Shown piece by piece: positions 3,841 to 29,949 of a DNA stretch of 32,000 bases. The position numbers and the translations under genes are program-made. The number at the start of each line of letters is the position of its first letter. Position 1 is the stretch's first letter. A model generated the notes under the pieces. That model searched no databases, was not told where the DNA came from, and was given only the letters and a program-made list of their open reading frames with translations. The stretch comes from Geobacter sulfurreducens PCA (GTDB taxonomy: Bacteria > Desulfobacterota > Desulfuromonadia > Geobacterales > Geobacteraceae), in assembly GCF_000007985.2 (NCBI RefSeq), contig NC_002939.5:2730001-2762000 (forward strand), read 5' to 3'.

Positions 3841-3945
3841 CCCTCCCCTCGCGGGCTTGTCACGGCACGGCCGTTCGTGGTAGCCTTGTCGGCAGTGGCG
3901 GCTCTTCCGGCCGCCATCGGCATTCACGGACCGGGAAGGACCACC

Positions 3946-7072: not shown

Positions 7073-7105
7073 CCGCCGCCCGAGCGATCACACACGCAGC
7101 AGACA

Positions 7106-7137
7106 GAGGCCCCGTTCCGACGGGGCCTCTTTTTTTC
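7106..7137 (+). terminator. rho-independent terminator after the OFA transporter
   Basis: GAGGCCCCG (7106-7114) pairs with CGGGGCCTC (7121-7129) across a 6-nt loop, followed by T7. Confidence 0.85.
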
Positions 7138-7155
7138 AGCCGCCGGTCAATTCCG

Positions 7156-7184
7156 TTGTCCCAGTGAATCAATCTGGTTATACT
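7156..7184 (+). promoter_or_regulatory. candidate sigma-70 promoter (TTGTCC-17-TATACT)
   Basis: TTGTCC at 7156-7161, a 17-nt spacer and TATACT at 7179-7184, just upstream of the second MFS gene. This implies a very short leader. Confidence 0.4.
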
Positions 7185-7202
7185 TTTCCTGTTCATTAAA
7201 CC

Positions 7203-8465: not shown

Positions 8466-10954
8466 ACCGGCTCTCCCTGTTCCAGAAGATCCTGGTGGCC
8501 ATGCTGACCCTGTCGCTGGTGCCGCTGCTGGTCTCTTCGGCCATCCTCGCCCTGAACCTGGGCAGCGTGCGAGAGACCCTTGCCGACCGGATCGCCGATG
8601 CGGCCGACCGGCAGGCATCCGAAAGCCTGCGCCTTCGGGCCGAGCAGGTGGCCGAGGGCATAGCCGGCTTCCTGCAGGACTGCGAGGCCGACCTGAAGCT
8701 CTGCGTCACCCTCCCCCGCACCCCCGAAATCCTGACCGCCTTCTACGAGAGCCGCCACGGCGAGATCTGGCGGCGGGACGGCACCGCCGCGGCCCCCCGC
8801 GAGGTGCGCGAGTCGATCCCGCGCTATGCCTCCCTGGCCGTGATCGATGCCAACGGCCGGGAAACCTTCGTGATCCGCGAAGGGGCCATCGTGCCCGAAA
8901 GCGGGCTGCGCACCGTGGCCGACCCCGGCCAGACCGAGTTCCTGCGGGAGGATTACTTCCAGCGCGCCCGGCAGCTCAAACGGGGCGAAATCCTCGTGAC
9001 GCACGTCACCGGCTTCCACGTGGGGAAAGAGGAGCAGCTGGCCGGCGCCCGGGAGCCTGAGGACGCCTACAGCGGCAGGGAATTTCGGGGTGTGGTCCGC
9101 TTCGCCACCCCGCTGTTCGACAGGCGGGGCCGGTTCGACGGGGTCATGGTCCTGTCACTCGACCACCGCCACCTGATGGAATTCTCCCAGCATATCAGCC
9201 CCGGCCGGAACCGGGCCGTGGTCTTCCCCTCCTACCGCAGCGGCAACTATGCCTTCATCTTCGACGACGAAGGGTGGATCATCACCCATCCCAAGTTCTG
9301 GGACATCCGGGGGGTGGACGCCGACGGCACCCTGGTCCCCCCCTACACGAAGAACTCCCCCCCCGCCGACGTCGAGGCGGGCCGCATCCCCTTCAACCTG
9401 GACCACGCCGGCTTCATTCACCCCAACTACCCCCGGGTGGCCCAGCTGGTGCGGGAGCGCCAATCGGGCTACGTGGACATCACCAATGTTGGGGGCGCCA
9501 AGAAGATCATGGCCTTCGCGCCGATCCCCTACTCCACCGGCGACTACACGCGCCACGGCATCTTCGGCGGGGTAACCATCGGCTTCCAGGTGGACCAGTT
9601 CCATGAAACGGCCCGGGCCGGCTCCGCCGTCATCAATCTCCAGCTCCGGGAACACCTGCGGCTTTCGGCCATCATCGTGGCCGCCACGTCCCTGATGGTG
9701 GTCATTTGTGCCTGGCTCCTCTCCCGGGGCGTCACCCGGCCCCTGGCCCTGCTGACCGACGGGGTCAGGCGGCTGGCGGGGGGCGAATCCGGCGCCAAGG
9801 TGGAAGTGGCCGCGCGCGACGAGGTGGGCGAGCTGGCCGACACCTTCAACCGGATGGCCGACGAGCTGGAACTTCGCAAGAACAGACTTCTCAAGACCCT
9901 GGAGGAGCTGGAAGAATCGCGGCGGCACATCATGGATGAGCGCAACTTCAAGGAAAGCGTTCTGGAGAGCATCTCCAGCGCCATCATGACGCTGTCGCCC
10001 GAGGGGTTGCTCACCTCGATCAACGGCACCGGTACGCGCCTGCTGGGGCCGGCCGCGGTCATCGGCGCCCCTTACCAAAAGGTGTTCAGCGAATGGAGCG
10101 ACATGACCGGCCGGATCGCCGAGGCCCTGGCCGGCCGGCGCGAGTACGGCCGCGAACCGCTCGTGCTCGGGACCGATGGCAAGGAACGGCATTTCGAGGT
10201 GGGCTTCTTCCCCATCTATGCCGATCGCTCCGGCGGGCTCACCGTCACCATCCGGGACGAGACCGAGAAGGAAAGCTTTCGGGAGGAGATGACGCGGCTG
10301 GACCGGCTGGCCTCCCTGGGCAAGCTGGCCGCCGGCATCGCCCACGAGGTGCGCAACCCGCTCACGGGGGTGTCGCTGCTTCTGGACGACCTCCACGATC
10401 GGGCCGGACTCGACGCCGAAAGCCAGGCAATGATGGGCAAGGCGCTCCAGGAGATCGAGCGGGTGGAGCGGCTCGTGGCCGGGCTGCTCAACTTCTCCTC
10501 CCCGCCCAAGGCATTCCTGCGGGAGGCCGACCTGAACCGGGTCATCCAGGATACGCTCCTGCTCCTGCGTCGGGAGTGCGAGAGCCGGAACGTGGCGCTC
10601 GGCTTCGAGCCCGGCGACGTGCCGGTGTTCCGCATCGACGTGGAAAAGGTGCGGCAGGCCCTCCTGAACCTGGTGAAAAACGCCCTGGAGGCCATGCCCG
10701 ACGGCGGATCGGTCCGGGTGACCACCGGCGTGGATGGTGACACTGCCGTGGTAACGGTGGCCGACACCGGCCCCGGCATCGCCGATAACGACCTGCCGCT
10801 CATCTTCGAGCCCTTCTTCACCCGCAAGGGGGCGGGCACCGGGTTGGGGCTCTCCATCACCCAGCGCATCGTCGAGGAGCACCACGGCAGGATCAGCGTG
10901 GAAAGCAGCGCCGGGGCAGGAACGACCTTCACCATCACTCTTCCCATGGGCTAG
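8462..10954 (+). CDS. sensor histidine kinase (TM - Cache-like periplasmic domain - TM - HAMP - PAS - HisKA - HATPase_c)
   Basis: 830 aa. ATG 8462 overlaps the MFS stop (ATGA 8462-8465); the track ORF 7874.. is an out-of-context extension. It has two TM segments flanking ~330 aa, HAMP (DEVGELADTFNRMADEL), H-box AAGIAHEVRNPLTG, N-box LVKNALEAM, G1 DTGPGI and G2 GTGLGLSI. Confidence 0.85.
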   Translation: MNRLSLFQKILVAMLTLSLVPLLVSSAILALNLGSVRETLADRIADAADRQASESLRLRAEQVAEGIAGFLQDCEADLKLCVTLPRTPEILTAFYESRHGEIWRRDGTAAAPREVRESIPRYASLAVIDANGRETFVIREGAIVPESGLRTVADPGQTEFLREDYFQRARQLKRGEILVTHVTGFHVGKEEQLAGAREPEDAYSGREFRGVVRFATPLFDRRGRFDGVMVLSLDHRHLMEFSQHISPGRNRAVVFPSYRSGNYAFIFDDEGWIITHPKFWDIRGVDADGTLVPPYTKNSPPADVEAGRIPFNLDHAGFIHPNYPRVAQLVRERQSGYVDITNVGGAKKIMAFAPIPYSTGDYTRHGIFGGVTIGFQVDQFHETARAGSAVINLQLREHLRLSAIIVAATSLMVVICAWLLSRGVTRPLALLTDGVRRLAGGESGAKVEVAARDEVGELADTFNRMADELELRKNRLLKTLEELEESRRHIMDERNFKESVLESISSAIMTLSPEGLLTSINGTGTRLLGPAAVIGAPYQKVFSEWSDMTGRIAEALAGRREYGREPLVLGTDGKERHFEVGFFPIYADRSGGLTVTIRDETEKESFREEMTRLDRLASLGKLAAGIAHEVRNPLTGVSLLLDDLHDRAGLDAESQAMMGKALQEIERVERLVAGLLNFSSPPKAFLREADLNRVIQDTLLLLRRECESRNVALGFEPGDVPVFRIDVEKVRQALLNLVKNALEAMPDGGSVRVTTGVDGDTAVVTVADTGPGIADNDLPLIFEPFFTRKGAGTGLGLSITQRIVEEHHGRISVESSAGAGTTFTITLPMG

Positions 10955-11301: not shown

Positions 11302-12207
11302 CTACCTTACCACTCTGAACACCTGGATGCGGTTATTGTTCCGATCGGCGATAACCACGTCGATGTCGTTCTCCTCGCTGATGCAGAGCTGCGACGGATA
11401 GTGGAGGAACGAGTTCTTCCAGCCGATGTTGAGCTGACGGCCCTGGAAGGAGCCGTCCTGGCCGAGGGTGACGACGGCATTGCCGGTCTGGTCGAGGATG
11501 AAGATCTTCCCCTGCTTGTCGGTGGCAATGCTGGTGGGGAACTGGAGATACTCCTTCATCCCGTCGGTCAGGGGCTTGAAGGCGGTTTCGCCGCGGGCGG
11601 CCGCATAGACCCTGGACGCCACGCTGTCAAGGAGAAGCGTGGTCCCGCTGGCGCTGACCGCCAGGTCGGAGATGAAGCGGTACCCCTCGGGGAACGGCAT
11701 CTGCGACTGGAAGGTGCCGGCCGCATCGGTGACGATGACCCGCGCCCCGAAGATATCCAGGATATGGATATTGTCCTTGTCGTCCACGCGGATGCCGCGG
11801 GGGGCGATGGTGGCAGGCGCCGGAACCCCCTTCAGATCCAGGTAGCCGGCAAAGCTCCCCTCGGGCGAGAAGTGGGCGATGCGGCGGAGTTTCCCGTCGA
11901 TGACCAGGATCTCCCCCTTGGAGGTCAGCTGCACCTTGGTGGGGTACGGCACCTGCTCCGCCTTGATCTCGGTGCCGCCGCGCACCGAGCCGTTCTCGAT
12001 GCTGTAGCTCAGCAGCCGTCCGCCGCCGGTGTCGGAAACCACCAGCTGCCTCTTGCCGCAGGCTATCCCCTCGGGGGCCTTCATGGTCCCCCCCTTCTCA
12101 TCGTTGAACTCGGTAGTCAAGTGCTTGAGCTTGATGGCGTCGGCGCCCAGGGCCGGCGATGCGAGCGCTCCTGCAAGGGCAAGCATGGTTATGATCGTTT
12201 TTGCCAT
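11302..12207 (-). CDS. periplasmic/secreted NHL-repeat beta-propeller protein
   Basis: 301 aa with signal peptide MAKTIITMLALAGALASPALGA. It has repeated blades of the type PTSIATDKQGKIFILDQTGNAVVTL and PSQLCISEENDIDVVIADRNNNRIQVF. The SD AGAGGTGA is embedded in the end of the upstream gene. Confidence 0.8.
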   Translation of the reverse strand: MAKTIITMLALAGALASPALGADAIKLKHLTTEFNDEKGGTMKAPEGIACGKRQLVVSDTGGGRLLSYSIENGSVRGGTEIKAEQVPYPTKVQLTSKGEILVIDGKLRRIAHFSPEGSFAGYLDLKGVPAPATIAPRGIRVDDKDNIHILDIFGARVIVTDAAGTFQSQMPFPEGYRFISDLAVSASGTTLLLDSVASRVYAAARGETAFKPLTDGMKEYLQFPTSIATDKQGKIFILDQTGNAVVTLGQDGSFQGRQLNIGWKNSFLHYPSQLCISEENDIDVVIADRNNNRIQVFRVVR

Positions 12208-12211
12208 GGAA

Positions 12212-13493
12212 TCACCTCTTGTACTGTTCGTGGCACTGGACGCAGAGGTCGCTGGTCTTGGGATAGTAGAGCATCTTCTTGAACTCGGTCCCGTGGGCGT
12301 CGTGGCAGCTCACGCACAGGATCGGGATGTTCTTGTTGCGCGGATCCCGGAACTTCTCGCCGATGGGGTGGGTCGAGTGGTGCGCCCAGTCGTGGCAGTC
12401 GGCGCAGAGCTCGATATCCAGCGACTTCTTGGTCAGGAAGAGGTAGTTGGATGAGTGGGGATCGTGGCACGCCGTGCACTGGCCGTTCTTGACCGGCTCG
12501 TGGGTTGACGCGACCTTTTCCTGACGCTTCATGTTGTCCACGTGGCAGCTGTTGCAGAGCACCGCCATGGGCTGGCGCAGGATGCCCTTCTGCTTGCCCG
12601 CGTGGGGGTTGTGGCAGCTGAGGCAGGCCCTGCTTGCTCAGCAGCGGGCCGTGGACCCGGTTCAGGCCGAACGTCGTGTTGACCATGTCGTTATGGCAGC
12701 CGCGGCACAGATCGGTGCCGGTCTTCTTGGTGGCCAGCGGGTTCGGCGAGGTGGCCTCCTCGTGGCACTGGTTGCACATCCGGGTTGCCACCGGCTTGTG
12801 GACCGTGTTGTAGAGGATGCCCGGGTTGTCGGAGCCGTGGGGATCATGGCAGCCGGTGCAGCGGGCATTGGCCACCGGATAGTTCATGTGCTTCTTGGCG
12901 AACATGGGCCGGTCGGTCTTGTGGCAGCCCACGCAGAGCGGGATGATATCGCTCTTCAGCAGGTACGGGTTCTTGGCCGAGGCGTGGGGATCGTGGCAGT
13001 TGAGGCATCCCTGGGCCACGGGCATGTGGCGGTACTTGACCTTGGACAGGGTGGCCCCCATCTCCTTGTGGCACTCGAAGCAGAGCTCGTTCCCGCCCTT
13101 GAGCAGGTTCTCCTTGTTGGGGGCCGAGTGGGGATCGTGGCACTTCATGCAGCTCCCCTCGCCCACCACCTTGTGGACGCTCTTGGCGCCGGAGGGCACC
13201 ACCGTGGTGTGGCAGCGGTAGCAGACCCCGCCGTTATCGGCGGAGAGCAGCTTGCCGTGGGTCGAGGTATGGGGGTTGTGGCAGCCGGTACACTCCCCCT
13301 TCTTCAGGGGGGTGTGCACGAAGGGCTTGGACATCTTCTCCTTGAACGCCGCGTGGCAGTTGAAACAGAGCTTGCCGGTGGCGTCGGGCTTGAGCTTGAA
13401 CTTGAGTGCGTTGTCCTGGGCGAGCGCAAAGGATGCGCCCAGAATGACAAGCACCGCGCAGAACGTGTAAAGATATGTGCGATATGCGTGCAT
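12212..13493 (-). pseudogene. multihaem cytochrome c (16 CXXCH if the frame is restored), split by a 1-nt frameshift at about 12626
   Basis: ATG 13493 (GGAG SD) opens a signal peptide plus 10 CXXCH and reads sensibly up to ...RVHGPLLSKQG. After the extra base at 12626 the +1 frame continues CLSCHNPHAGKQKGILRQPMAVLCNSCH... with 6 more CXXCH to the stop at 12212. The original frame continues as Pro/Arg-rich nonsense to 12189. Confidence 0.7.
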
Positions 13494-13504
13494 GGGAGCT
13501 CCTT

Positions 13505-15487
13505 TTACTGTTTTCCTGTCACGTGGCAATCAGAGCACGAACGCGAAGCGAAGGGTGCGTGCACCATCTTCTTGAAGAACTTCGGGTCCTTGGAACTGTG
13601 CGGATCGTGGCAGTTCATGCAGTTCATCACCGTGGCGGAGATCCCCAGGTGAGCGTCCGCAAACGGCTTACGGTCGTAGGAGTGGCACTGGCCGCACAGG
13701 GCCACGAGCTGTTCGGTAAGCAGCGACGGCTGGCCCGAATTGTGGGGCTTGTGGCAGGTCTGGCAGTCCTGCTCCGCAGGCGTGTGGATCTTCTCGCTGG
13801 CGAACCGCTCCTTGGTCCCCTTGTGGCAGGACACGCAGAGGTCGGTCCCCTGGGCCAGCAGCAGCTTGTTGAGCTTCGCCTTGTGGGGGCTGTGGCACTT
13901 GGTGCAGTCCCCTCCCCGGAACGGGGCATGGGAGCTCTTGGAGGCCTTGTCGCCCTGCTCCAGCGACTTGTGGCAGCCGAAGCACAGCTTCGCCTCGTTG
14001 TCCACGATCATCCCCCGCACGTTGCTGCCGTGGGAATCGTGGCAGGTGAGGCACTGGCCCCCGTTGAACGGCATGTGACTGGAGCCGCCCGACTCGGCCT
14101 TCATCAGGTCCGCGTGGCAGGGTGCGCAGAGCTGCGGCACGGTATTCTTGAGCAGGTTCTTTTCGGCCGAGCCGTGGGCGCCGTGGCACGACACGCAGTC
14201 GGCGTTCATGACCGGCTTGTGGGTGAAGGTCTTCTTGAATTTGGTCTCGGCATCGGTGTGGCAGCCGTAGCAGACCGTATCGGCCCGCTCCTTGAGCATG
14301 GCGGCGAAGTTGGTGCCGTGGGGATCATGGCAGGAGCTGCAGTCGCCGCCGTTGAAGGGCACGTGCTGAACCTTGTTCTTGAGCCCTTCCTTGGTCTTGG
14401 CATGGCACGAGTAGCAGAGATCCGAGCCGGCCAGGGTGAGCAGTCCCTTGTTGGGGGCGGCATGGGGCCGGTGGCAGGAGAGGCATCCCTTCTTGTCGCC
14501 GGTGATGACCTTGTGGGGCACGGCAACGCGCAGGTTCTTGTCCTGGTGGCACCCGAAGCAGAGGTTGTTGCCGTCGGCCGTGAGCAGCTTCGCGAACTCG
14601 GAGGTGTGGGCCCGGTGACAGGAGAGGCAGTCGCCGCTCTTGAACGGCGCGTGCTCGGCCACGCCGCCGGTCCCCTTGAGCATGGCCGCATCGTGGCACT
14701 GGTAGCAGAGTTCGCTCCCCTTCTGGGTCACTCCGAAGGGCTCGGGCCCGCCGGCCGGATTGTGGCAGCCGTCACAGCCGCCCGTGGCAACGGGGTTATG
14801 GGCGCTGGAGCGGAGGAGCTTCTTGCCGGTGGCCGAGTGGGGGTTGTGGCAGATAGTGCAGCGCTTGCTTTCCACCGGATAGCCGCCGTGGGCCTTCTTG
14901 AAGCTGCCGGCGCCGCTGTCGTGGCAGCCGAGACAGATCTTCGGCTCCTTTTCCCTGAGGAGGTTGTCCTCGGTGGAGCTATGGGCCGCGTGGCAGGAGC
15001 CGCAGCCTTTTTTCGTGATGGCGCCGTGGATGGTCCCCTTCTCGTAGTCCTCCTTCTTGTGGCAGCCGTAGCAGGACTCCGGCCCGTCACCCTTCAACAG
15101 GTGCGGGGTGGTGGAGGCGTGGGGGTTGTGGCAGAGGGTACATTTCCCCTGGCGCAGGGGTGTGTGCACCTTGGGCTTGTCCAGGCCGATCTTGTCCCGG
15201 CCGTGACAGTCGAAGCAGAGCTGGTTGCCGTCCTTCTTGAGCAGCAGCTTCGGCACGATGCCGTGGCGCAGGTGACAGTCCTCGCACTTCTGCTCCTTGA
15301 CGATGGTGTGGATGTACTTCATGGAGAGGTACTTGTCATTGAACTTGCCATGACAGTCGACGCATTCCTTGCGGGCGAACTTCTTCGCCGCCAGCGCCGG
15401 GCTCTCCGACAGGTGAAGAATGAGCCCCCCCACCAGGAGGGTCATCACCAGGAATAAGAGTTGTCGTTGTGCATGCACGGTGCGCAT
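13505..15487 (-). CDS. multihaem cytochrome c with 26 CXXCH motifs
   Basis: 660 aa from ATG 15487 with GGAGGAG SD and an N-terminal hydrophobic signal/anchor. I counted 26 CXXCH, arranged as a repeating two-haem unit (LCxxCH ... VHxP..G.CxxCH(N/D)PH ... LL). Confidence 0.9.
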   Translation of the reverse strand: MRTVHAQRQLLFLVMTLLVGGLILHLSESPALAAKKFARKECVDCHGKFNDKYLSMKYIHTIVKEQKCEDCHLRHGIVPKLLLKKDGNQLCFDCHGRDKIGLDKPKVHTPLRQGKCTLCHNPHASTTPHLLKGDGPESCYGCHKKEDYEKGTIHGAITKKGCGSCHAAHSSTEDNLLREKEPKICLGCHDSGAGSFKKAHGGYPVESKRCTICHNPHSATGKKLLRSSAHNPVATGGCDGCHNPAGGPEPFGVTQKGSELCYQCHDAAMLKGTGGVAEHAPFKSGDCLSCHRAHTSEFAKLLTADGNNLCFGCHQDKNLRVAVPHKVITGDKKGCLSCHRPHAAPNKGLLTLAGSDLCYSCHAKTKEGLKNKVQHVPFNGGDCSSCHDPHGTNFAAMLKERADTVCYGCHTDAETKFKKTFTHKPVMNADCVSCHGAHGSAEKNLLKNTVPQLCAPCHADLMKAESGGSSHMPFNGGQCLTCHDSHGSNVRGMIVDNEAKLCFGCHKSLEQGDKASKSSHAPFRGGDCTKCHSPHKAKLNKLLLAQGTDLCVSCHKGTKERFASEKIHTPAEQDCQTCHKPHNSGQPSLLTEQLVALCGQCHSYDRKPFADAHLGISATVMNCMNCHDPHSSKDPKFFKKMVHAPFASRSCSDCHVTGKQ

Positions 15488-21272: not shown

Positions 21273-22721
21273 TTACCTTTCGCCCGCCACGACCACGCGG
21301 CAGGGCTCGTCGCCCACGTCGATCTGCGCCACCTCCCGCTTGCCCACCAGGCCGATGAACTGCAGCCGCTTCACGCCGGAGAGGAGGGCCAGGAGATTGT
21401 TGTGCTCGCCGTCGATGGTCAGGTACGAGGGACTGCCGCCGCCGGAGATGAAATTGCCCGGCAGGAGCGAAAAGGGGTCGAAGACGTCGATCACGGTGTC
21501 GCTCCGCTTGGCGATGTAGATCTGGTCGGTGGACGTGTCGATCTTGATCGTCCGCGCCCCCATCCCCACGTAAACCCGCTTGGCGACGAGCCTGTTGGTA
21601 AGATCGATATCGACCAGGTAGGGGGAAAGCTCGTGGATGACCAGCAGCCGGTCGCCCCGCCGGTTCAGCTGCGCCCAGAGGGGCGAGGTTTCGGTAGGCA
21701 GCGTGGCGACCACGGCGCGCCGCGCGATGTCCACCACCGACACCGAGTTGGACAGGGTATTGAGCACGTAGGCCGTGCGTCCCAGCCGGTCCACGATCAC
21801 GGCGCCGGGCCTGCTCCCCACGATGACCCGGGCCAGTTCCGACTGGGAGGCCGGGTCCACGAAGCTGAGCGTATTGGAGCCGTTGTTGGCCACCAGCAGG
21901 GTCCTGCCGTCGGGGGTCAGGGCCAGTTCGACCGGGCCGTCGCCGATGCTGAGCCGGATGCGGGTCAGGGAATAGTCGGCCATCAGGTCGATGACCTCGA
22001 TGGCGTCGTCGCCCGACAGGGCCACGTAGGCCCGGCGCGCCGCCTGATCGAAGACGATGCCGGCCGGCGCCCGCCCGGTCTCGATGAACTCCGTGACCCG
22101 GGCCTCCCGCTTGTCGAACACCGCGATGGTGTTGGCCCCCTTGTTGGTGACGAAGCCCGTGAGTCCCCACAGGGGCCGCCCGGGGATCTCGGCCTTGAAG
22201 ACCGGCGAGAAGCTGAAGCGCTTGCTGACCGATGCATCTTCATCCAGCGTGAGGGAGATGAGGATACCCTTCTGGGGTTCCACCACGAAGGGGAAGTCGA
22301 TCATGACCGGCTTCTCGGGGGGCAGCAGGGCCATTCGCCCCTCGTCGGTCTTGGTGCCCGCCCCCGAGATCCGGAACGACAGGCCGCTGTAGCGCCCCCC
22401 CGGCAGGATCGCCGACCCCAGCATCCGCTGCCACTTCATGGTGGCGGGGCTCGCCTCGGTCAGCCTGAGGGAGAGGGGTATCTCCGTGCCGTCGCTCTTG
22501 ATCGCCGAAACCCCCGCCACGGTGAAGTCGAGCCGGCCGGCGTCCCGGGGGAAAGGCTCCAGGTAGAGGAACAGTTCCCCCTCGGCGAACAGCTGGGGCT
22601 TGGTGACGACAACGGGCGCGTGGCAGCCGCTGCACGTCAGCGCGGCGAGCACGGCGACCCACAGAACGATGAGGAGGGCAGCCCCGCGGGACGTCATGCG
22701 CTTGGGAGAATTCTCGTTCAT
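21273..22721 (-). CDS. YVTN-family beta-propeller protein with N-terminal signal/anchor and a single CXXCH
   Basis: 482 aa from ATG 22721 (GGGGAG SD; the track start 22769 would overlap the upstream gene). It has repeated ~40-aa units of the type GSRPGAVIVDRLGRTAYVLNTLSNSVSVVD. The N-terminus is ...LAALTCSGCHAPV. Confidence 0.75.
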   Translation of the reverse strand: MNENSPKRMTSRGAALLIVLWVAVLAALTCSGCHAPVVVTKPQLFAEGELFLYLEPFPRDAGRLDFTVAGVSAIKSDGTEIPLSLRLTEASPATMKWQRMLGSAILPGGRYSGLSFRISGAGTKTDEGRMALLPPEKPVMIDFPFVVEPQKGILISLTLDEDASVSKRFSFSPVFKAEIPGRPLWGLTGFVTNKGANTIAVFDKREARVTEFIETGRAPAGIVFDQAARRAYVALSGDDAIEVIDLMADYSLTRIRLSIGDGPVELALTPDGRTLLVANNGSNTLSFVDPASQSELARVIVGSRPGAVIVDRLGRTAYVLNTLSNSVSVVDIARRAVVATLPTETSPLWAQLNRRGDRLLVIHELSPYLVDIDLTNRLVAKRVYVGMGARTIKIDTSTDQIYIAKRSDTVIDVFDPFSLLPGNFISGGGSPSYLTIDGEHNNLLALLSGVKRLQFIGLVGKREVAQIDVGDEPCRVVVAGER

Positions 22722-22747
22722 GGTGCTCCCCGATCCCCTTGCCACGG

Positions 22748-24061
22748 TCATGGCACGGACGTGTGGCATTTGGTGCAGAGCGTCGACTGCTCCGGCGAGA
22801 AGAGCGACGCGGGCCGGTCATAGTACGCCCTGAGGGCTTCCATCTCGCTGCGCCCCTGGCCGTAGGGCTGGTAGGCCTCCCCTTCCTGTGAATACTTGCC
22901 GTTGTAGACCACGTAGGGCGTCTTGGTGTTCCAGCGGGTGGCGCTGTCCCAGCCGCCGGCGTGGGCCCGGTGGCAGGTGAGGCACATGACGCGGGGGGTG
23001 CCGTCCGCGGTGCTGGGCCCCTTGGTGGGGGTGGCCGTCACGATATTCCTCAGCAGGGTGTAGTTGTTGGTTCCCGCCTCGAAGGGGACCAGCGACAGCC
23101 AGGAGGTGGCCTCCACGCCGGACAGGTCCCCGGTCTTGATGTACCGGTTGTAGTAATCCACCATGGCGCCGCCCAGGGGGGCCTCGGTGCCGGCCGGGTG
23201 CACCAGCCCTCCCCCGCTGCCGTCCCGGTGGATGTTCGGGTGACAGTTCCGGCACCACTCGGACATCCCCTGGCCGTAGGCCACGCGGGTCGCGGTGGTG
23301 CTTTCGCTCCGGTTGTAGTCGGCCGGGGCCACCGCCGCCGGGGGTCCGTTGATGAAGGAAAAGGCCGGTCCCAGCGACTTGGGGTAATAGCCGTTCCCCC
23401 CCAGGAGCCGGTAGGCGCCCACGGCCATGGCGGCATCGGGCTCGACGCCGGTGGCGTAGCTCCCCGAGCCCCGGATCGGCTTGCCCGTGACCGCAATGGA
23501 GCCGTCCTGGTCGCGGCGGTAGCGGCCGTGGGGGTCGTGGCAGGCGACGCAGGACAGGCCCGCCGCCGGATAGCTGCCGCCGGGGGCCGTCAGGTGGAGG
23601 GCATCCTGGAGATAGCCGTAGTCCCCCGCCACCACGTTATGGCCGTGCCGGTCCCCCTCGCTGCTCGAAAGCGTCGAGCCAAAGGCCGGAATCCAGGTGT
23701 AGGATTTCCTGAGCCAGCCGAAATCGCCGCCGGGCCCCAGCTGCTTGGGCGGGACCCCGAACGGCATCTCGAACCCCGGCGTGCTCACGTGATAGGAGGT
23801 GGGGCCCACATCCCCCGCCTTCTCGTGACAGTTCAGGCAGGTGGAGCTGGAATCGCCCCCCTTCAGGAGATAGCGGTTGCCCATGCCCACGGGGCGGCCG
23901 TTGGTGGCCACCGCGAAGCCCCCTTCCGAGTTGTGCATGGTGTGACACCCTTCGCACTCGCCCGCGCCCCCTTCGTGAAAGGCGAGGGAACGGCCTGTGG
24001 TGGCCGGCAGCAGTACCGGCAGCACGACCAGGAGCGCAAGTATGGCCTTGGGTGCTTTCAC
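22748..24061 (-). CDS. OmcS-family hexahaem cytochrome c, third paralogue
   Basis: 437 aa. Its GTG start overlaps the upstream stop (GTGA, 24058-24061), with AAGGAA SD. Signal peptide ...GRSLA then FHEGGAGECEGCHTMHNS. Six CXXCH are collinear with OmcS/OmcT, and blocks GPGGDFGWLRKSYTW, VGAYRLLGG, TRVAYGQGMSEWC.NCH and CLTCHRAHAGGWDS are shared. Confidence 0.9.
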   Translation of the reverse strand: MKAPKAILALLVVLPVLLPATTGRSLAFHEGGAGECEGCHTMHNSEGGFAVATNGRPVGMGNRYLLKGGDSSSTCLNCHEKAGDVGPTSYHVSTPGFEMPFGVPPKQLGPGGDFGWLRKSYTWIPAFGSTLSSSEGDRHGHNVVAGDYGYLQDALHLTAPGGSYPAAGLSCVACHDPHGRYRRDQDGSIAVTGKPIRGSGSYATGVEPDAAMAVGAYRLLGGNGYYPKSLGPAFSFINGPPAAVAPADYNRSESTTATRVAYGQGMSEWCRNCHPNIHRDGSGGGLVHPAGTEAPLGGAMVDYYNRYIKTGDLSGVEATSWLSLVPFEAGTNNYTLLRNIVTATPTKGPSTADGTPRVMCLTCHRAHAGGWDSATRWNTKTPYVVYNGKYSQEGEAYQPYGQGRSEMEALRAYYDRPASLFSPEQSTLCTKCHTSVP

Positions 24062-27000
24062 GCCGATTCCTTAATGGGTCGACCCTGGGCCGGGTACGGG
24101 TTGCCGTGCTGCCGGCCCGTCATGGTCGCGATGATTTCCCGCATCCTGCGGACAAATTCCGCCTGGTCCGGAAGCGGCTTGCCGCGCGCCTCCGCCCCGC
24201 TCAACTCCTCGTTGTAGGCAAGCCGGACGGCCTCCATCACCTCGGCGGCCAGCCTTTTGGCCGAGCCATCCCGCCCCCTGCCGTTAATGTCCGCCTGGCC
24301 GATGATCACCCGCTCGTCGCTGTCCACGAAATCAACCACCGTCAGCTCACGGCTGACGCGGCTCATGACCGCGGCAACGTTCACGACGACCCGGCGACCA
24401 GATTCATCTAGCAAGGCCAATGCCAGTTGATCGAGCGGCAGCGGACTGCTCGCCATTTCCTCCAGGTATTCGCTGCGCAGGAACCGCCACGGAGCGAACG
24501 CGGCATAGTTCCCTTCCAGCTCGGAGACCAGGAGGCCGAACCGGGGCGAATCGTAGCGCCCGCCCAGGAAGATGGCCCGGGCCTCCAGGGCCAGGGCCGC
24601 GGCGCGGTCGAGCCTCATCCAGCGGTTCTCCCGGGCGAGCCGGTCCGCCGGCGGCACGCTGTCGTCCAGGTAGGCCAGGACGCTCTCCCGGTGCCGGGCA
24701 AGGGCGTTCACGTTGACCTCCGGCAGCGCTGACTTGCCGGTGGAACGGGGAACCGAGAATTCGAGATAGAGGTTGTCGTCAGTGTTAATTCTACCAGTAC
24801 GGCTGAACCTGTCAGCACCCGCCGTGCCCATGACGAAATAACTCAGCAGGTCGGTGGCGCTCCCCATCTGCACCCGTGCCAGATCGGCGGCCACGGCCGG
24901 CACGGCGATCCGGGCGGCCAGCTCGTCCTCGCTCAGGAGGATGGGGGCGTTGCTGCCGATGAGCATGGCATCCCCCTGGGTCATCCAGACCAGGACGTGG
25001 CGGTAAGCCTGCCGGAAGGTCCGGACCACCGACCTGAGATCGTCGGCGGAAAGATCGTAGAGGGGGAGCCACTGGCACATGATGCCGCCGGCCCGCAGGT
25101 GCTCTGCGGCCAGCTCGAAATACTCGCGGGTGTAGTTGTAGCCGGCGCCGCTCAGCCACGGGTGGATCGGATCGGCGGTGATCACGTCGTAGCGCTCGCC
25201 CGTGGTCGCCAGGTAGTTGCGGCCGTCGCTGAACGCCACCCGCAGCCGGCGGTCTCCGAGCACGCCGTGGTTGTAGGCGGCAAAGGAGCGCGTCACCCCC
25301 AGCACCTTCGGCTCCACCTCGGCCAGCGTCATCTCGGACACGCTCGGGTGGAGCGAAACAGCGCCAAGGGTAATCCCGCTGCCCGCGCCGATCACCAGCA
25401 CCTTGCGCGGGTTGCGGTGCAGAAGCATGGGCAGGTGACCCAGGGCGTACTGGTTCTGAAGGCTCTCATTGTGGTCGGACGCCTCGATCCGGCCGTTGCG
25501 CAGGAACGCCTGGTAGCCCCCCCTGATCCTGATGGAGCTGACGATGGACTGGATTCCCTCGGCGTAATAGAGGACATCGGTGTGCCGCTTGGCCTCGGCA
25601 ATCAGGTCCGGGGTCCTGAACACCTCCGGCTGGTTGGTGCGGTAGATGGCAAAGTACTTGGCGTCCCAGATCCGGGGCATGGTGCCGGCAACGGCCATGA
25701 CGCCGACCACAGCCAGCACGGTGCCCGCCGTGGCCAGCCTGCGGGGGGTGCCACGCAGCAGGCGCGCCAGGATCAACAGGCCGAAACCGGCGTTTACCGT
25801 GGCCAGCAGGTAGAGGGAGCGCTCGATGCCGAAGACCTGGATCAACACGAAACCGCTCACCACGGTGCCGAGAATGGCGCCGATCGTGTTGCAGGTCAGC
25901 ACCTCGCCCACGGCATGCCCCACCTTGCGCCGCCGGCAGGCGTCAAGGGTGCCGGCCAGGGGAAAGGCCACCCCCATGAAAAAGGCCGGGATGAACAGGT
26001 AGGAAAAGACCAGGGCGAAATTGGCGAACTGACGCGCGCGGAACAGGTCGGTGCTTTGCGACAGGAAGAGGTCCTGGAGGAAGAACACCCTGGTGGGAAG
26101 ATCGCGGATGAGAATGGTCACCAGCAGCGCGCTGAGGCCGATCACGATCTGCACCACGCCGAACCCGCCGATCAGCTTGGACACGGGACAGCCCCCCTCC
26201 TCGGGCGGCCGGAGGCGGCGGGCCCACAGGCCATAAGCCCCGCTGCCCGCGGCAATGCCGGTCAGGAAGGCCGCCAGCATCAAAGTGAAGCCGTACACAT
26301 TCGTGCCGATCACGATCCCCAGGACCCGGGTCCAGAGCACCTCGTACCCCAGGGCGCAGAAGCCGCTGACCCCGATCCCCCAGACCACGAGCCCGATGCG
26401 GGCCTTCTCCTCGGGCAGCGTAACAGCGGACAGGGGCGCCGGGGCCTCATCCTCGCCGGCCTCCAGGTACCGGGCCGCCGGGCCCTGGAGCGCGAAGCAG
26501 GCGATGCCCAGCAGCACGTTGACGGTGATCGCGCCGGCCATGGTGTTCGATACCCCGAACCGCCCCAACAGGTAGAATCCGGCCCCAAAACAGCCGGCCA
26601 CCGCGCCGAAGGTGTTCAGGGCGTAGAGGTAGGCCACCCCCCGCCCCACCGCGCGCCGGCCCCGGACCATGAACGCGGCCAGCACCGGCAGGGTCCCCCC
26701 CAGCAGGGTCGTGGGGACGATGAGCGCGATGGCGGCGAGCACGATCCGCAGGGTGAGCAAGGCCACGCGGGGCAGCTGGTGCGAATGCTCGGTCAGCGAC
26801 TCGAAGGAGTAGGCGGGCATCAGGGAATAGAGGTTGAGCAGGGCGATGAAGAGCAGGGCGAAAAAGGCGATGCCGATCTCAAGGGCACCGTAGAGGCGCA
26901 GCAGGTTCCGGGTGGTGCGCACGCGCCGGCCGAAGAGCCAGCTACCCAGGGCAAGCCCCCCCATGACCACGGCCAGCACCGTGGTCACCGCCAGGTGCGA

Positions 27001-27111
27001 GCCGCCGAACACGAGGCTGAGCTTTCTGACCCAGACGACCTCATAGACCAGGGCGGTGGCTCCCGAGAGGAAAAAGATCAGATAGATGAGAGCGGTAATG
27101 AGGATCGGCAT
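24058..27111 (-). CDS. polytopic membrane protein fused to a spermidine-synthase-like (SpeE-fold) domain and an unassigned C-terminal domain
   Basis: About 1017 aa from ATG 27111; the track starts at GTG 27165 and neither start has a good SD. About 480 aa of hydrophobic helices are followed by KVLVIGAGSGITLGAV ... YDVITADPIHPW ... GIMCQWLPLY (class-I SAM/dcSAM fold of SpeE type), then ~330 aa with no motif I recognise. Confidence 0.75.
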   Translation of the reverse strand: MPILITALIYLIFFLSGATALVYEVVWVRKLSLVFGGSHLAVTTVLAVVMGGLALGSWLFGRRVRTTRNLLRLYGALEIGIAFFALLFIALLNLYSLMPAYSFESLTEHSHQLPRVALLTLRIVLAAIALIVPTTLLGGTLPVLAAFMVRGRRAVGRGVAYLYALNTFGAVAGCFGAGFYLLGRFGVSNTMAGAITVNVLLGIACFALQGPAARYLEAGEDEAPAPLSAVTLPEEKARIGLVVWGIGVSGFCALGYEVLWTRVLGIVIGTNVYGFTLMLAAFLTGIAAGSGAYGLWARRLRPPEEGGCPVSKLIGGFGVVQIVIGLSALLVTILIRDLPTRVFFLQDLFLSQSTDLFRARQFANFALVFSYLFIPAFFMGVAFPLAGTLDACRRRKVGHAVGEVLTCNTIGAILGTVVSGFVLIQVFGIERSLYLLATVNAGFGLLILARLLRGTPRRLATAGTVLAVVGVMAVAGTMPRIWDAKYFAIYRTNQPEVFRTPDLIAEAKRHTDVLYYAEGIQSIVSSIRIRGGYQAFLRNGRIEASDHNESLQNQYALGHLPMLLHRNPRKVLVIGAGSGITLGAVSLHPSVSEMTLAEVEPKVLGVTRSFAAYNHGVLGDRRLRVAFSDGRNYLATTGERYDVITADPIHPWLSGAGYNYTREYFELAAEHLRAGGIMCQWLPLYDLSADDLRSVVRTFRQAYRHVLVWMTQGDAMLIGSNAPILLSEDELAARIAVPAVAADLARVQMGSATDLLSYFVMGTAGADRFSRTGRINTDDNLYLEFSVPRSTGKSALPEVNVNALARHRESVLAYLDDSVPPADRLARENRWMRLDRAAALALEARAIFLGGRYDSPRFGLLVSELEGNYAAFAPWRFLRSEYLEEMASSPLPLDQLALALLDESGRRVVVNVAAVMSRVSRELTVVDFVDSDERVIIGQADINGRGRDGSAKRLAAEVMEAVRLAYNEELSGAEARGKPLPDQAEFVRRMREIIATMTGRQHGNPYPAQGRPIKESA

Positions 27112-27187
27112 GGCACGCTCAAACCCCTCGACCGGACAGGCGCCGGAAACCGAGGGGTGTTTCACCGGATAGTGGATCGATTGCTGG

Positions 27188-27227
27188 AAAAAAGGCGGCC
27201 ACGACCGGCCGGAGGCCGGCCGTGACC
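27188..27227 (-). terminator. strong rho-independent terminator immediately after omcT
   Basis: The minus strand reads GGUCACGGCCGG-CCUCCGG-CCGGUCGUGGCC (12-14 bp stem including 2 G-U pairs), then GCC and U6. It starts 20 nt after the omcT stop. Confidence 0.8.
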
Positions 27228-27247
27228 AGAACTACATGACATATGAA

Positions 27248-28540
27248 TCAGTCTTTGGCATGACACTTGTTGCACAGGACCCGTTGATACGGGGCGAAGT
27301 TGGTGGGGGGTCTTCCATAGTACGCCTGCTGCGTTTCGGCAACGGTCCGTCCCTGGGCCTGGGCTGCGTTGGTGACCGGGTCGGGCCACACGGGGTTGCC
27401 TGACGCATCGGCCACGGTCATGAACTCGTTGCCGAGGCCGTACCGCATCATGCTGTCAAAGCCGGATGCGTGGGCGCGGTGGCAGGAGAGGCACATGACC
27501 CGGTCCGTGGAGATGGGGCCGGCAGTTGACGTGGTCTGGGCCTTGAGCGCGTTCAGGTCGTGGGTGTTGTCGCTCTGGAACGGCACCAGCGAGGTGAACG
27601 CCGTATCCACGGCGCCCGTCAGGTTGCCCGACTTCTTGTACGAGTTGTAGATCTGGGCCACGAAGGGGCCAAGGTTCTGATCGGCCGGGTGAACCAGGGT
27701 GCCGAAGGTGGTGTGCATCTGCCCGTGGCAGTTGGCGCACCAGAGGGACATGCTCCGGCCGTAGGCGACCCGCGTGTCGCTGGTGGCTTCCGAGCGGTTG
27801 TAGCTGTTGGGGGCCACGGCGTAGGGGGCCGCGAACATGAAGGCATCGCCGCCGCTCAGGGACTTGGGCTTGTACCCGGCACCGCCCAGGAGGCGATAAA
27901 CGCCGACGGCAGTGGTGGCATCGGGAACAGCGCCGTAGGAGCCGGAGCTCCTGATCGGCTTGCCGGTCTTGGCCTGGACGCCCAGTGAGGTGATCCGGTA
28001 GGTGCCGTGGGGGTCATGGCAGCTGATGCAGCTGAACTGGTTGGCCGGGAAGGGGGTGTTCATGCTCCCCGGGGCCGCGGTGATGGTGCTGTCGGCCACG
28101 TAGTTGTAATCGGCGGCCACGATGTTGTGGCCCTTGCGCTCGCCGTGGCTCCACTCCGTGGCGGCACCGGCGCGCGGCACCCAGCTGTAGGTCTTCTTGA
28201 GCCAGCCGAAATCGCCGCCCGGCGTGAGCTGGAGCGGCGGAGAGCCGGCGGGCATGTCGGCTTCTGCGGTACTGATGTGGTAGCTGCTGGGCCCCGTGTC
28301 ACCGGCATGCTGGTGACAGTTGAGGCACGACGAGCTCTGGTCCGTCCCCTGGAGCAGATAAGGGCCGGTGGTGAACTGGGCAGTAGCGTTGTTCATCTGC
28401 TGGCCGCCCAGGGAGTTGTGCATGGTGTGGCATCCCTCGCACTCTGCCACGCCACCTGAGTGGAAAGCCCATCCCGTGCCGGTTGCGCCGAGAACCAGGA
28501 GCGCCGCTGCTGTGACGGGAAGAGTCTTGAAGCGTTTCAT
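27248..28540 (-). CDS. omcT: hexahaem c-type cytochrome OmcT (OmcS paralogue)
   Basis: 430 aa with AGGAGG SD 6 nt upstream. Signal peptide ...GTGWA then FHSGGVAECEGCHTMHNS, and six CXXCH. It is roughly 88% identical to OmcS over the first ~95 mature residues by my hand count (84/95). Confidence 0.9.
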   Translation of the reverse strand: MKRFKTLPVTAAALLVLGATGTGWAFHSGGVAECEGCHTMHNSLGGQQMNNATAQFTTGPYLLQGTDQSSSCLNCHQHAGDTGPSSYHISTAEADMPAGSPPLQLTPGGDFGWLKKTYSWVPRAGAATEWSHGERKGHNIVAADYNYVADSTITAAPGSMNTPFPANQFSCISCHDPHGTYRITSLGVQAKTGKPIRSSGSYGAVPDATTAVGVYRLLGGAGYKPKSLSGGDAFMFAAPYAVAPNSYNRSEATSDTRVAYGRSMSLWCANCHGQMHTTFGTLVHPADQNLGPFVAQIYNSYKKSGNLTGAVDTAFTSLVPFQSDNTHDLNALKAQTTSTAGPISTDRVMCLSCHRAHASGFDSMMRYGLGNEFMTVADASGNPVWPDPVTNAAQAQGRTVAETQQAYYGRPPTNFAPYQRVLCNKCHAKD

Positions 28541-28650: not shown

Positions 28651-29949
28651 TTAGTCCTTGGCGTGGCACTTGTTGCAGAGAGCGCGCTGGTAAGGAGCAA
28701 ACTTGTCAGCAGTACGGCCATAGTAGGCAGCGGTCATCTCGTTGACCGAACGGCCCTGGAGGGACGAGGTATTGGGGTCCGTACCATAGATCGAGTTGCC
28801 GGAAGCATCGGCGATGGTCGTGAACTCGTATGCCAGGTTGAAGCGGGTCATGCTGTCGAAGCCCGAAGCGTGAGCGCGGTGGCAGGAGAGGCAGTTCACG
28901 TTGCTGGTGGCGTCGGCGCCGGTCAGCGCGGTGTCGTCGATCTTGGCGTGACCCTTGAGCACGGTGTAGTCGGCAGTGCCTTCCTCGAACGGAGCAAGGG
29001 ACAGGTAGGCGGAAGCCTGGGTACCGGTCAGGTCGCCGGACTTCTTGTAGGAGTTGTACAGACCGGCGATGGTAGCACCGAACTTGGCGCCGTTGCCGGC
29101 CGGGTGACGCAGGTTGGTCGGGTACGCGCTGTTGTGGATGTCGGTGTGGCAGTTGGCGCACCACTCGGACATGCCCTGGCCGTAGGCAACGCGGGTCTGA
29201 GTCGTAGCTTCCGTCCGGTTGTAGGTGGACGGAGCAACGGCGGCCGGTACCTGGTTGGCGAAGGCATAGGAACCGCTCAGGGACTTGGGCTGGTAGCCGG
29301 TGCCGCCCAGGATGCGGTATGCACCAACGGCGCCCCACGCGGTGGGATCGTTGCTGTTCTGGTAGGAACCGCTGTTCTTGATGGGGAGACCGGTGGTGGC
29401 GATGCTGCCGTCAACAAAACGACGATACTTCCCGTGGGGATCGTGGCAGCTGGAGCAGTGAAGCTGGTTGGCCGGATAGGTACCGCCCGGGGCCGTGGTC
29501 AGGGTGGTGTCGGCAACATAGTTGTAGTCGCCGGCAACGATGTTGTGGCCTTTGCGCTCGCCTTCGCTCGTGTTGAGACCACGAACGTTCCAGGTGTAGG
29601 TCTTCTTCACCCAGCCGAAGTCGCCGCCCGGGGTCATCTGGAGCGGAGCGGTACCGGCAGGCATATCAGCTTCAGCGGTGGAGATGTGGTAGCTGGAAGG
29701 ACCGGTGTCACCGGCGTGCTGGTGGCAGTTCAGACAGGACGAGCTCTGGGTGGCGCCCTGGAGCAGCATGGGGCCGGTGGTGAACTGGGCAGTGGCGCTG
29801 TTCATGACTGCGCCGCCCAGCGAGTTGTGCATCGTGTGGCACCCTTCGCACTCGGCAACGCCGCCGGAGTGGAAAGCGAACGCCGCGGGGGCGCTCATGA
29901 GAAGTGCTGCTGCTGCCACGGAAAGACTTACTTTCATCCCCTTTTTCAT
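28651..29949 (-). CDS. omcS: hexahaem c-type cytochrome OmcS (nanowire-forming subunit)
   Basis: 432 aa from ATG 29949 (GGAGG 5 nt upstream; the track ORF extends a further 50 codons upstream). Signal peptide MKKGMKVSLSVAAAALLMSAPAAFA then FHSGGVAECEGCHTMHNSLGGAVMNSATAQ..., and six CXXCH. I recognise the sequence from memory as G. sulfurreducens OmcS. Confidence 0.95.
   Translation of the reverse strand: MKKGMKVSLSVAAAALLMSAPAAFAFHSGGVAECEGCHTMHNSLGGAVMNSATAQFTTGPMLLQGATQSSSCLNCHQHAGDTGPSSYHISTAEADMPAGTAPLQMTPGGDFGWVKKTYTWNVRGLNTSEGERKGHNIVAGDYNYVADTTLTTAPGGTYPANQLHCSSCHDPHGKYRRFVDGSIATTGLPIKNSGSYQNSNDPTAWGAVGAYRILGGTGYQPKSLSGSYAFANQVPAAVAPSTYNRTEATTQTRVAYGQGMSEWCANCHTDIHNSAYPTNLRHPAGNGAKFGATIAGLYNSYKKSGDLTGTQASAYLSLAPFEEGTADYTVLKGHAKIDDTALTGADATSNVNCLSCHRAHASGFDSMTRFNLAYEFTTIADASGNSIYGTDPNTSSLQGRSVNEMTAAYYGRTADKFAPYQRALCNKCHAKD

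Follow-up and report, generated by a model that had tools for sequence, protein, structure and literature searches.

What does a protein do that carries the label of a spermidine synthase, is predicted to sit in the inner membrane and is encoded among genes for OmcS-type cytochromes? We addressed this question for a gene on the minus strand of a 32,000-nucleotide stretch of DNA (contig NC_002939.5, positions 2,730,001 to 2,762,000; the whole stretch is here called the window, and coordinates are counted within it), where the open reading frame (ORF) at 24058..27165 encodes a fusion of a membrane domain with a SpeE-like domain, below the fusion protein. OmcS filaments transfer electrons from cells to minerals and electrodes. 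How these filaments are secreted and anchored is, according to a review, still speculative (PMC12307469). The analysis indicates that the fusion protein is very unlikely to make spermidine, judging by its sequence, and that on balance it is probably a transporter-coupled periplasmic module for ligand binding or group transfer, which would serve the biogenesis of OmcS-type filaments or the envelope.

Architecture and active site of the fusion protein

The ORF is present on the minus strand and in the mechanical ORF list runs for 1035 amino acids (aa) from a GTG at 27165; the peptides GAGSG, ADPIHPW and MCQWLPLY, quoted from it in an earlier interpretation made from the letters alone (the sequence-only reading), are all found in its translation. 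Since the nearest homologues (93% identical) have a length of 1017 aa, as do the gene calls made for them, and codon 19 is an ATG (27111) with GAGGGG in front of it, the start is likely to be this ATG rather than the GTG, which would give a protein of 1017 aa; residue numbers refer to this form unless the 1035-aa ORF is named. It is not a chance ORF, as more than 6000 database proteins match it at E ≤ 1e-10. A 742-aa ORF on the plus strand, antisense to the gene (24997..27225), was rejected as a high-GC artefact because every homology match falls on the minus strand. The parts of the gene are as follows.

24058..27111, minus strand: coding sequence of an OscB-like MFS/SpeE-fold fusion, probably 1017 aa plus stop (homologue lengths, gene calls, NF037959)
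25666..27111, minus strand: membrane domain, residues 1-482, a 12-helix MFS (major facilitator superfamily) fold plus a 13th helix at 455-474 (AlphaFold2, Foldseek)
24952..25665, minus strand: SpeE-fold module, residues ~483-720, an N-terminal beta-hairpin and a Rossmann domain (PF01564 at E=1e-24, Foldseek)
25375..25389, minus strand: motif I, GAGSG, pairing with GGGEG (1UIR) and GGGDG (1INL)
25156..25176, minus strand: motif IV, ADPIHPW, pairing with IDLTDP/IDSTDP; it retains the first Asp, has an invariant His in place of the second and continues with Pro-Trp
24061..24951, minus strand: C-terminal region, residues ~721-1017 (AlphaFold2 model, library search)

The SpeE fold proposed in the sequence-only reading is upheld both by profiles and by structure. 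The protein belongs to a known but uncharacterised family, NF037959 of NCBIfam ("fused MFS/spermidine synthase"), which it matches with 159 bits against a cut-off of 40 over three stretches that include both membrane repeats; we found no tested function of this family in the literature. Its sole Pfam match is PF01564 (Spermine_synth; E=1.6e-23, 83.7 bits against a gathering threshold of 22.9), spanning residues 573-720 of the 1035-aa ORF. A full-length AlphaFold2 model based on an alignment of 46 homologues (predicted local distance difference test, pLDDT, 82.4; predicted TM-score, pTM, 0.80) places 13 transmembrane (TM) helices within residues 2-474, in agreement with the polytopic N-terminal half described earlier, followed by a beta-hairpin domain and a Rossmann domain at ~511-720 and by helices with a four-stranded sheet at ~720-1000. 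Searched as a whole with Foldseek, this model retrieves SpeE structures only, at target-normalised TM-scores of 0.62-0.70 (for 1UIR, E=1.5e-11 and a score of ~0.69). We regard the identity and architecture of the protein, an MFS/SpeE-fold fusion of the NF037959 family, as highly probable.

For the membrane domain we made a separate AlphaFold2 model of residues 1-482 (pLDDT 77, pTM 0.79), from an alignment that consists of fragments of database proteins. Its top 50 Foldseek matches are all MFS transporters, with E-values down to 5e-5 over ~460 aligned columns, and include NorA (7LO8), SV2A, FLVCR1 (8UBW) and FLVCR2, ferroportin (6W4S) and VMAT; the TM-scores against MFS structures are 0.40-0.60 when normalised to the query and up to 0.70 when normalised to the target. 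By sequence, residues 1-477 match no Pfam family at E ≤ 1, MFS_1 included, and a profile of the domain finds nothing among PDB sequences at E ≤ 10; of the homologues, P0242 reaches 41 bits and P0201 34.2 bits, both above the Pfam MFS_1 cut-off of 33.4. The domain carries a repeated YExxWxR motif and the conserved intramembrane residues E78, R122, E257, R262 and E403. The C-terminal region, to which the sequence-only reading could assign no identity, stays without one, its ~300 aa matching no Pfam family and its profile having no relative among PDB sequences (one chance match, E=0.42). A full-library search with these 300 aa gave 379 clusters, which have the module in full only as the last part of ~1000-aa proteins; its proximal ~130 residues, with NTDDNLYLEFS, are common to MFS-SpeE proteins of 800-1150 aa that end in TPR, and the distal module of helices and a four-strand sheet is private to the subfamily of the fusion protein.

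The active site was compared through HMMER alignments to Thermus thermophilus 1UIR and Thermotoga maritima 1INL, which yield the following equivalences (T. maritima numbering first).

Asp101 (motif I): replaced by Ser578 (HMMER alignment)
Asp173: replaced by His650 (HMMER alignment)
Tyr76 (YHE segment): replaced by Gln552 (HMMER alignment)
Glu121: kept as Glu598 (HMMER alignment)
Asn152/Asp: Asp629, kept (HMMER alignment)
Asp170: kept as Asp647 (HMMER alignment)

In SpeE, Asp101 contacts the aminopropyl amine of decarboxylated S-adenosylmethionine (dcSAM), Asp173 anchors the diamine and Tyr76 is catalytic, while Glu121 binds the ribose, Asn152 or Asp contacts the adenine and Asp170 is the general base; the structural work behind these roles is reportedly that of Korolev et al. 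(2002) and Wu et al. (2007). The alignments reproduce the hand alignment of GAGSG in the sequence-only reading, and they yield no intact SpeE catalytic set, owing to the substitutions at Ser578, His650 and Gln552. All six equivalent positions are invariant or nearly so among the 46 homologues, which are ~50% identical. When 183 full-length homologues are compared, motif I has Ser at its fourth position in 172, Thr in 8 and Ala in 1, is unreadable in 2 and never has Asp or Glu there; the D..HPW pattern is found in all but one (182 of 183). The wider TPR-tailed MFS-SpeE relatives likewise have a motif I without an acid, together with E..NPW or D..HPW, and loss of the motif-I acid is, in these alignments, a trait of the whole family and not particular to the fusion gene.

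Against the SpeE equivalog models the protein scores 91.6 (TIGR00417, cut-off 249.55) and 88.4 (PRK00811, cut-off 260), and against PRK03612, the model of membrane SpeE, 133.6 (cut-off 472); a true membrane SpeE of the last kind is ruled out by score and by active-site residues. No speD is found near the fusion gene. With the residues for the dcSAM amine and for the diamine replaced, a role as spermidine synthase appears very unlikely, and the database label "spermidine synthase" is almost certainly wrong. The sequence-only reading had doubted a housekeeping polyamine synthase from motif I, and its doubt is borne out by three replaced SpeE residues, by the failed equivalog cut-offs and by the predicted periplasmic location described below. 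The second-best Pfam match of the SpeE-like domain is MTS (PF05175; E=0.006, 16.6 bits, under the 23-bit cut-off), a weak match that we treat as a lead only.

On which side of the membrane the SpeE-like part lies, cytoplasm or periplasm, had been left to topology prediction. With 13 helices in the model, the two ends of the membrane domain should lie on opposite sides. Across the 46 homologues, Lys and Arg are concentrated in loops 2-3, 4-5, 8-9, 10-11 and 12-13 (net +1.9 to +3.7) and are few in the alternate loops, which places the N-terminus in and the C-terminus out. Characterised MFS members have their termini and central loop in the cytoplasm, and the homologue P0242 carries a DnaJ J-domain (74 bits, residues 240-302) inserted in the central TM6-7 loop of its MFS domain. 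The number of helices, the bias in Lys and Arg, and the MFS fold with the J-domain insert of P0242 thus argue for a periplasmic location of the 540-aa SpeE-like part, an orientation that we consider probable as a prediction. P0242, which is also TPR-tailed, has an odd architecture and served here as a topology marker.

The osc-type cluster and its linkage to the fusion gene

Pfam and NCBIfam matches together with CXXCH counts delineate an osc-type cluster on the minus strand, running from 31178 to 11302. It begins with an NHL protein, two OmcS homologues, a hairpin (27228..27196), the fusion gene and a third OmcS homologue, continues with a beta-propeller with one CXXCH, a 729-aa protein of no family, a GNA1162/LpoB-like lipoprotein and a 392-aa lipoprotein, and ends with a SurA-like peptidyl-prolyl isomerase, a 26-haem cytochrome, a 10-haem cytochrome and another NHL protein. 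The fusion protein is its sole predicted inner-membrane protein. The neighbouring features are these.

28651..29949, minus strand: first hexahaem OmcS-like gene, probably 432 aa (ORF, relatives, CXXCH count)
27248..28540, minus strand: upstream hexahaem OmcS-like gene, 430 aa (ORF, profile match, CXXCH count)
27196..27228, minus strand: strong terminator-like hairpin that separates the fusion gene from the second OmcS-like gene (stem of 15 pairs including 11 G-C, with a run of T behind it)
24058..24061, minus strand: GTGA overlap of the fusion-gene stop with the GTG start of the OmcS homologue (sequence; relatives' gene calls)
22748..24061, minus strand: downstream hexahaem OmcS homologue, 437 aa, positional equivalent of GSU2501/oscC (PDB 6EF8 match, CXXCH)
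21273..22751, minus strand: OscD-like YNCE/YVTN beta-propeller, 492 aa from ATG 22751, one CXXCH (profile matches, motif scan)
12189-15487, minus strand: multihaem cytochromes of 660 aa with 26 CXXCH and 446 aa with 10 CXXCH, positional equivalents of oscI/oscJ (CXXCH counts)

To establish how general this arrangement is, homologue loci were scanned with one genome per species, which gave 80 loci at 43-93% identity in Nitrospirota, Acidobacteriota, Desulfobacterota, Geobacter, Anaeromyxobacter, Rokubacteria and others, the nearest being a metagenome-assembled genome (MAG) labelled Desulfovibrio sp. Genes of the osc type lie within the flanks seen at 44 of the 80 loci, and where at least 5 kb is available on both sides they are nearby in 29 of 42 (69%); Methylomirabilis-type MAGs also hold such linked loci. 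At least five gene orders occur among them, one divergent. The gene lies between OmcS genes in the window's lineage, heads the cluster in Geobacter and some Nitrospirota (a Geobacter MAG homologue of 46% identity heads an osc-type cluster), stands between OscF-like and OscG-like genes in Acidobacteriota, and in several other groups comes after the terminal NHL gene or lies in divergent orientation to the cluster. The persistence of the linkage through these rearrangements speaks for a functional connection with the osc system as a whole, and a role linked to OmcS filament biogenesis may be proposed from this gene context.

The minus strand reads GTGA at 24061-24058, with AGGA a few bases upstream, and the overlap with the downstream hexahaem gene reported in the sequence-only reading is thus real; the gene calls of close relatives have the identical 4-nucleotide (nt) overlap. 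The downstream product matches PDB 6EF8 over its full length (E=3e-133), has six CXXCH motifs and retains the histidine of CHTMH, which in OmcS filaments forms a bridge between subunits. In turn, the propeller ATG at 22751 overlaps the stop of this cytochrome gene (ATGA), so that three consecutive genes, for the fusion protein, the OmcS homologue and the propeller, are joined by 4-nt overlaps. From the first of these overlaps the sequence-only reading had deduced coupled 1:1 synthesis of the fusion protein with the paralogue. Its tie to the OmcS family holds in general, as the 29 of 42 well-flanked loci indicate, but the specific partnership is not supported, since the overlap is confined to close relatives of the window: the gap is 64 nt at locus L087 and 1.1 kb at the Geobacter locus L030, and other lineages have the gene flanked by OscF and OscG genes, behind the NHL gene or divergent.

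The gene block of the window agrees with the account that PMC13194489 gives of the osc operon of G. sulfurreducens: folding is attributed to OscH, secretion to OscEFG and the morphology of the filament to OscD, while GSU2501 is oscC, and oscI and oscJ encode cytochromes. By position, the fusion gene would be the equivalent of GSU2502, which was not among the best 120 matches of a search from the Geobacter MAG homologue. GSU2502, a "spermidine synthase", lies between omcT (GSU2503) and GSU2501, and all three show joint down-regulation; the log2 changes in one mutant are about -5 for omcS and omcT and -1.7 to -2.0 for GSU2502, GSU2501 and GSU3586 (PMC10599522). The hairpin at 27196-27228 points to strong expression of the two cytochrome genes upstream of it and to attenuated read-through into the fusion gene and the genes downstream, and a partial terminator at this position would fit the split in the log2 values.

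Several further observations concern these loci and their surroundings. For the first OmcS-like gene, the mechanical ORF reaches 30099 (482 aa, TTG start) and is probably overlong, relatives being called at 417-432 aa; a start near 29949 (MKKGMKVSL...) gives a normal signal peptide that ends in AFA, with FHSGG following. The single CXXCH of the OscD-like propeller is at residue 46 of the mechanical ORF. Two to three tandem ~1000-aa fusion paralogues, away from osc genes, are found at the species loci L015, L016 and L061. At L006 (7960-22413 of ENA contig_1415) a 49%-identical full-length homologue and a SpeE-like paralogue of 644 aa form a tandem pair; their neighbours are YfhO, a GT2 whose C-terminus is TM, a methyltransferase and three PMT_2/TPR genes, a setting of envelope glycosylation that has no cytochromes. 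On the plus strand of the window, just past the cluster end, 5705-10954 encodes two adjacent canonical MFS_1 transporters, of 455 and 420 aa, and a 1026-aa sensor histidine kinase of the dCache/HAMP/PAS type. At 3877-5334, also on the plus strand, a single ORF joins a complete TatD-type hydrolase domain (31-282) to a radical SAM domain (302-470); either the protein is an unusual fusion or the mechanical ORF call has merged two genes.

Possible roles of the fusion protein

The reading that we favour, with slightly more confidence than doubt, is of a transporter-coupled periplasmic ligand-binding or transferase module. The MFS domain would form a 12-helix inner-membrane transporter fold and the 13th helix would take the remainder of the chain through the membrane, with the SpeE-derived domain and the family-specific C-terminal domain facing the periplasm. 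The SpeE-derived domain, which keeps its nucleoside-contact residues and general-base Asp while those for the dcSAM aminopropyl amine and the diamine substrate are replaced, would be fed by its own transporter domain and, at the assembly site, serve the envelope or the biogenesis of filaments; the protein would be made from a transcription unit that lies downstream of the major cytochrome genes and is expressed at a lower level. The invariant pocket residues and the conserved intramembrane charges favour a ligand-binding or catalytic module that is fed by the transporter, and a mechanism that is in fact catalytic is put forward tentatively. Its most specific form, in which the MFS domain exports a SAM-like donor or presents a membrane-borne substrate and the SpeE-derived domain alkylates an amino group on OmcS-family subunits or an envelope acceptor where the filament is assembled, strikes us as quite improbable; the conserved mature N-terminal Phe of OmcS-family subunits could be an example of such an acceptor.

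A number of points weigh against this interpretation. To our knowledge, no adenosyl donor is available in the periplasm, and the orientation of the SpeE-like part rests on prediction. Of the 42 well-flanked loci, 13 have no osc gene nearby, and the homologue at L006 sits among YfhO/GT2/PMT_2 glycosylation genes. We also scanned metagenome loci in reverse, anchored on the OscF-like gene, the alignment of OscE being too variable for this purpose. Only 5 of the 28 OscF-anchored loci of at least 9 kb contain the fusion gene, and 7 of the 28 hold the whole NHL-to-NHL block without it, from which it follows that the gene is not an obligatory in-cluster member of the osc system. Whole osc-type blocks with no fusion gene inside or a few kb to either side are those at L088, L092, L112, L124, L127, L144 and L165. 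Finally, PMC13194489, a secondary account, gives roles to OscD-H and none to GSU2502.

Among the alternatives, a non-catalytic inner-membrane platform survives best and is possible if doubtful: the SpeE-like part would be a pseudoenzyme, and the C-terminal domain would dock Osc proteins of the periplasm or outer membrane, or the filament base, and so anchor the assembly site to the inner membrane. Such a role would suit the only predicted inner-membrane protein of the cluster, in a system whose anchoring is still speculative in the review cited above (PMC12307469), and three of four substrate-specific SpeE residues are lost. Related MFS-SpeE proteins bear TPR interaction tails in place of the C-terminal module, and these variable, interaction-type tails across the superfamily, along with the want of a known periplasmic adenosyl donor, favour a platform. 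However, the pocket residues E598, D629, D647, H650, W652, Q552 and Q680-W681 are invariant among the ~50%-identity homologues and charges are conserved inside the MFS helices, which suggests ligand and transport over mere scaffolding, and many osc clusters have no fusion gene nearby. With low confidence, we rank the transporter-coupled module slightly ahead of the platform.

A SpeE-derived, SAM-dependent N-methyltransferase or alkyltransferase acting on an amino group of an OmcS-family or other envelope protein is unlikely, although several features recall one. Motif I of the form G-x-G-(S/T)-G is the usual one of class-I methyltransferases, D-P-x-H-P-W resembles the (D/N)PP(Y/F/W) motif of amino-methyltransferases, and in plants SpeE-like enzymes change from dcSAM to SAM when the motif-I Asp is lost, as in putrescine N-methyltransferase; in addition, all three OmcS homologues share the predicted mature N-terminus FH(S/E)GG behind a terminal A of the signal peptide, and MTS is the second-best Pfam match. 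That match is below its cut-off, the motif resemblance is a lead only, and the predicted site of the domain is the periplasm, in which SAM is not known to occur; nor do we know of any reported methylation of OmcS. Similarly unlikely is a general envelope-modifying or transport protein whose presence in osc clusters would reflect shared envelope localisation or regulation. The glycosylation-type surroundings of the 49%-identical homologue at L006 (a SpeE-like gene, YfhO, GT2, a methyltransferase, PMT_2/TPR) would fit this, as would the 13 loci without osc neighbours, some with tandem paralogues, and the size of the wider, mostly TPR-tailed superfamily. Yet 69% of the well-flanked loci are osc-linked across phyla despite repeated rearrangement, and a search of the 13 non-osc loci for a recurrent neighbour gave none but paralogues of the fusion gene. 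A true membrane-bound polyamine aminopropyltransferase, as the PF01564 match, the naming in the sources and the retained ribose-binding Glu, adenine-contact Asp and base Asp might suggest, is highly improbable given equivalog scores far under their cut-offs, the family-wide replacement of motif-I acid, distal Asp and Tyr, the predicted periplasmic location and the lack of a nearby speD.

The osc cluster with the fusion gene in it is already published, and the family already has its NCBIfam model. The family-wide loss of the dcSAM and diamine residues and the predicted outward orientation were not found stated in the literature searched, which did not cover the primary osc paper, and we claim no priority for them. 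The label "spermidine synthase" is also borne by thousands of related MFS-SpeE fusions, and the dcSAM-binding acid is present in none of those examined. A periplasm-facing domain with nucleoside-contact residues would raise a testable question, namely which ligand it meets outside the cytoplasm, and the identity of that ligand could reveal a step still missing from the assembly of nanowires, or else an envelope enzyme of a new type. If the alkylation mechanism were true, it would amount to a transporter-fed periplasmic transferase in the biogenesis of cytochrome nanowires, a kind of enzyme not described so far.

Relation to known systems

The osc (omcS-companion) cluster is said to have been defined by Shen et al. 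in 2025 (Cell Chem Biol 32:239). Within it, the closest counterpart of the fusion gene by position is GSU2502, which also follows two OmcS-type genes and precedes an OmcS paralogue (GSU2501/oscC) and a YVTN beta-propeller, also bears the label "spermidine synthase" and is co-regulated with its neighbours (PMC10599522); the organism of the window has a GC content of ~66%. The features that unite the fusion protein with the NF037959 family and its TPR-tailed relatives are the MFS and SpeE-like domains, a motif I without an acid, (D/E)Px(H/N)PW and NTDDN-LEF. The fusion protein differs from the TPR-tailed relatives in having the full 12+1 helices and, instead of TPR, the private distal C-terminal module, and its subfamily, set against NF037959 at large, is mostly osc-linked.

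Canonical SpeE (PF01564; 1INL/1JQ3, 1UIR, 2O06) has the same two-domain fold, and the ribose Glu, the adenine contact and the equivalent of Asp170 are kept in the fusion protein, whereas Asp101 has become Ser, Asp173 His and Tyr76 Gln, and the domain is fused to a membrane domain and predicted to be periplasmic. Plant putrescine N-methyltransferase provides a precedent for a SpeE fold that changed its cosubstrate after loss of the motif-I Asp; the plant enzyme, however, is soluble and cytosolic and keeps its diamine-binding residues, and the likeness is a resemblance only. With MFS transporters, finally, the fusion protein shares the 12-helix fold and an internal repeat with conserved charged intramembrane residues, but unlike them it has no MFS_1 match and adds a 13th helix and a 540-aa extension that is predicted to reach into the periplasm.

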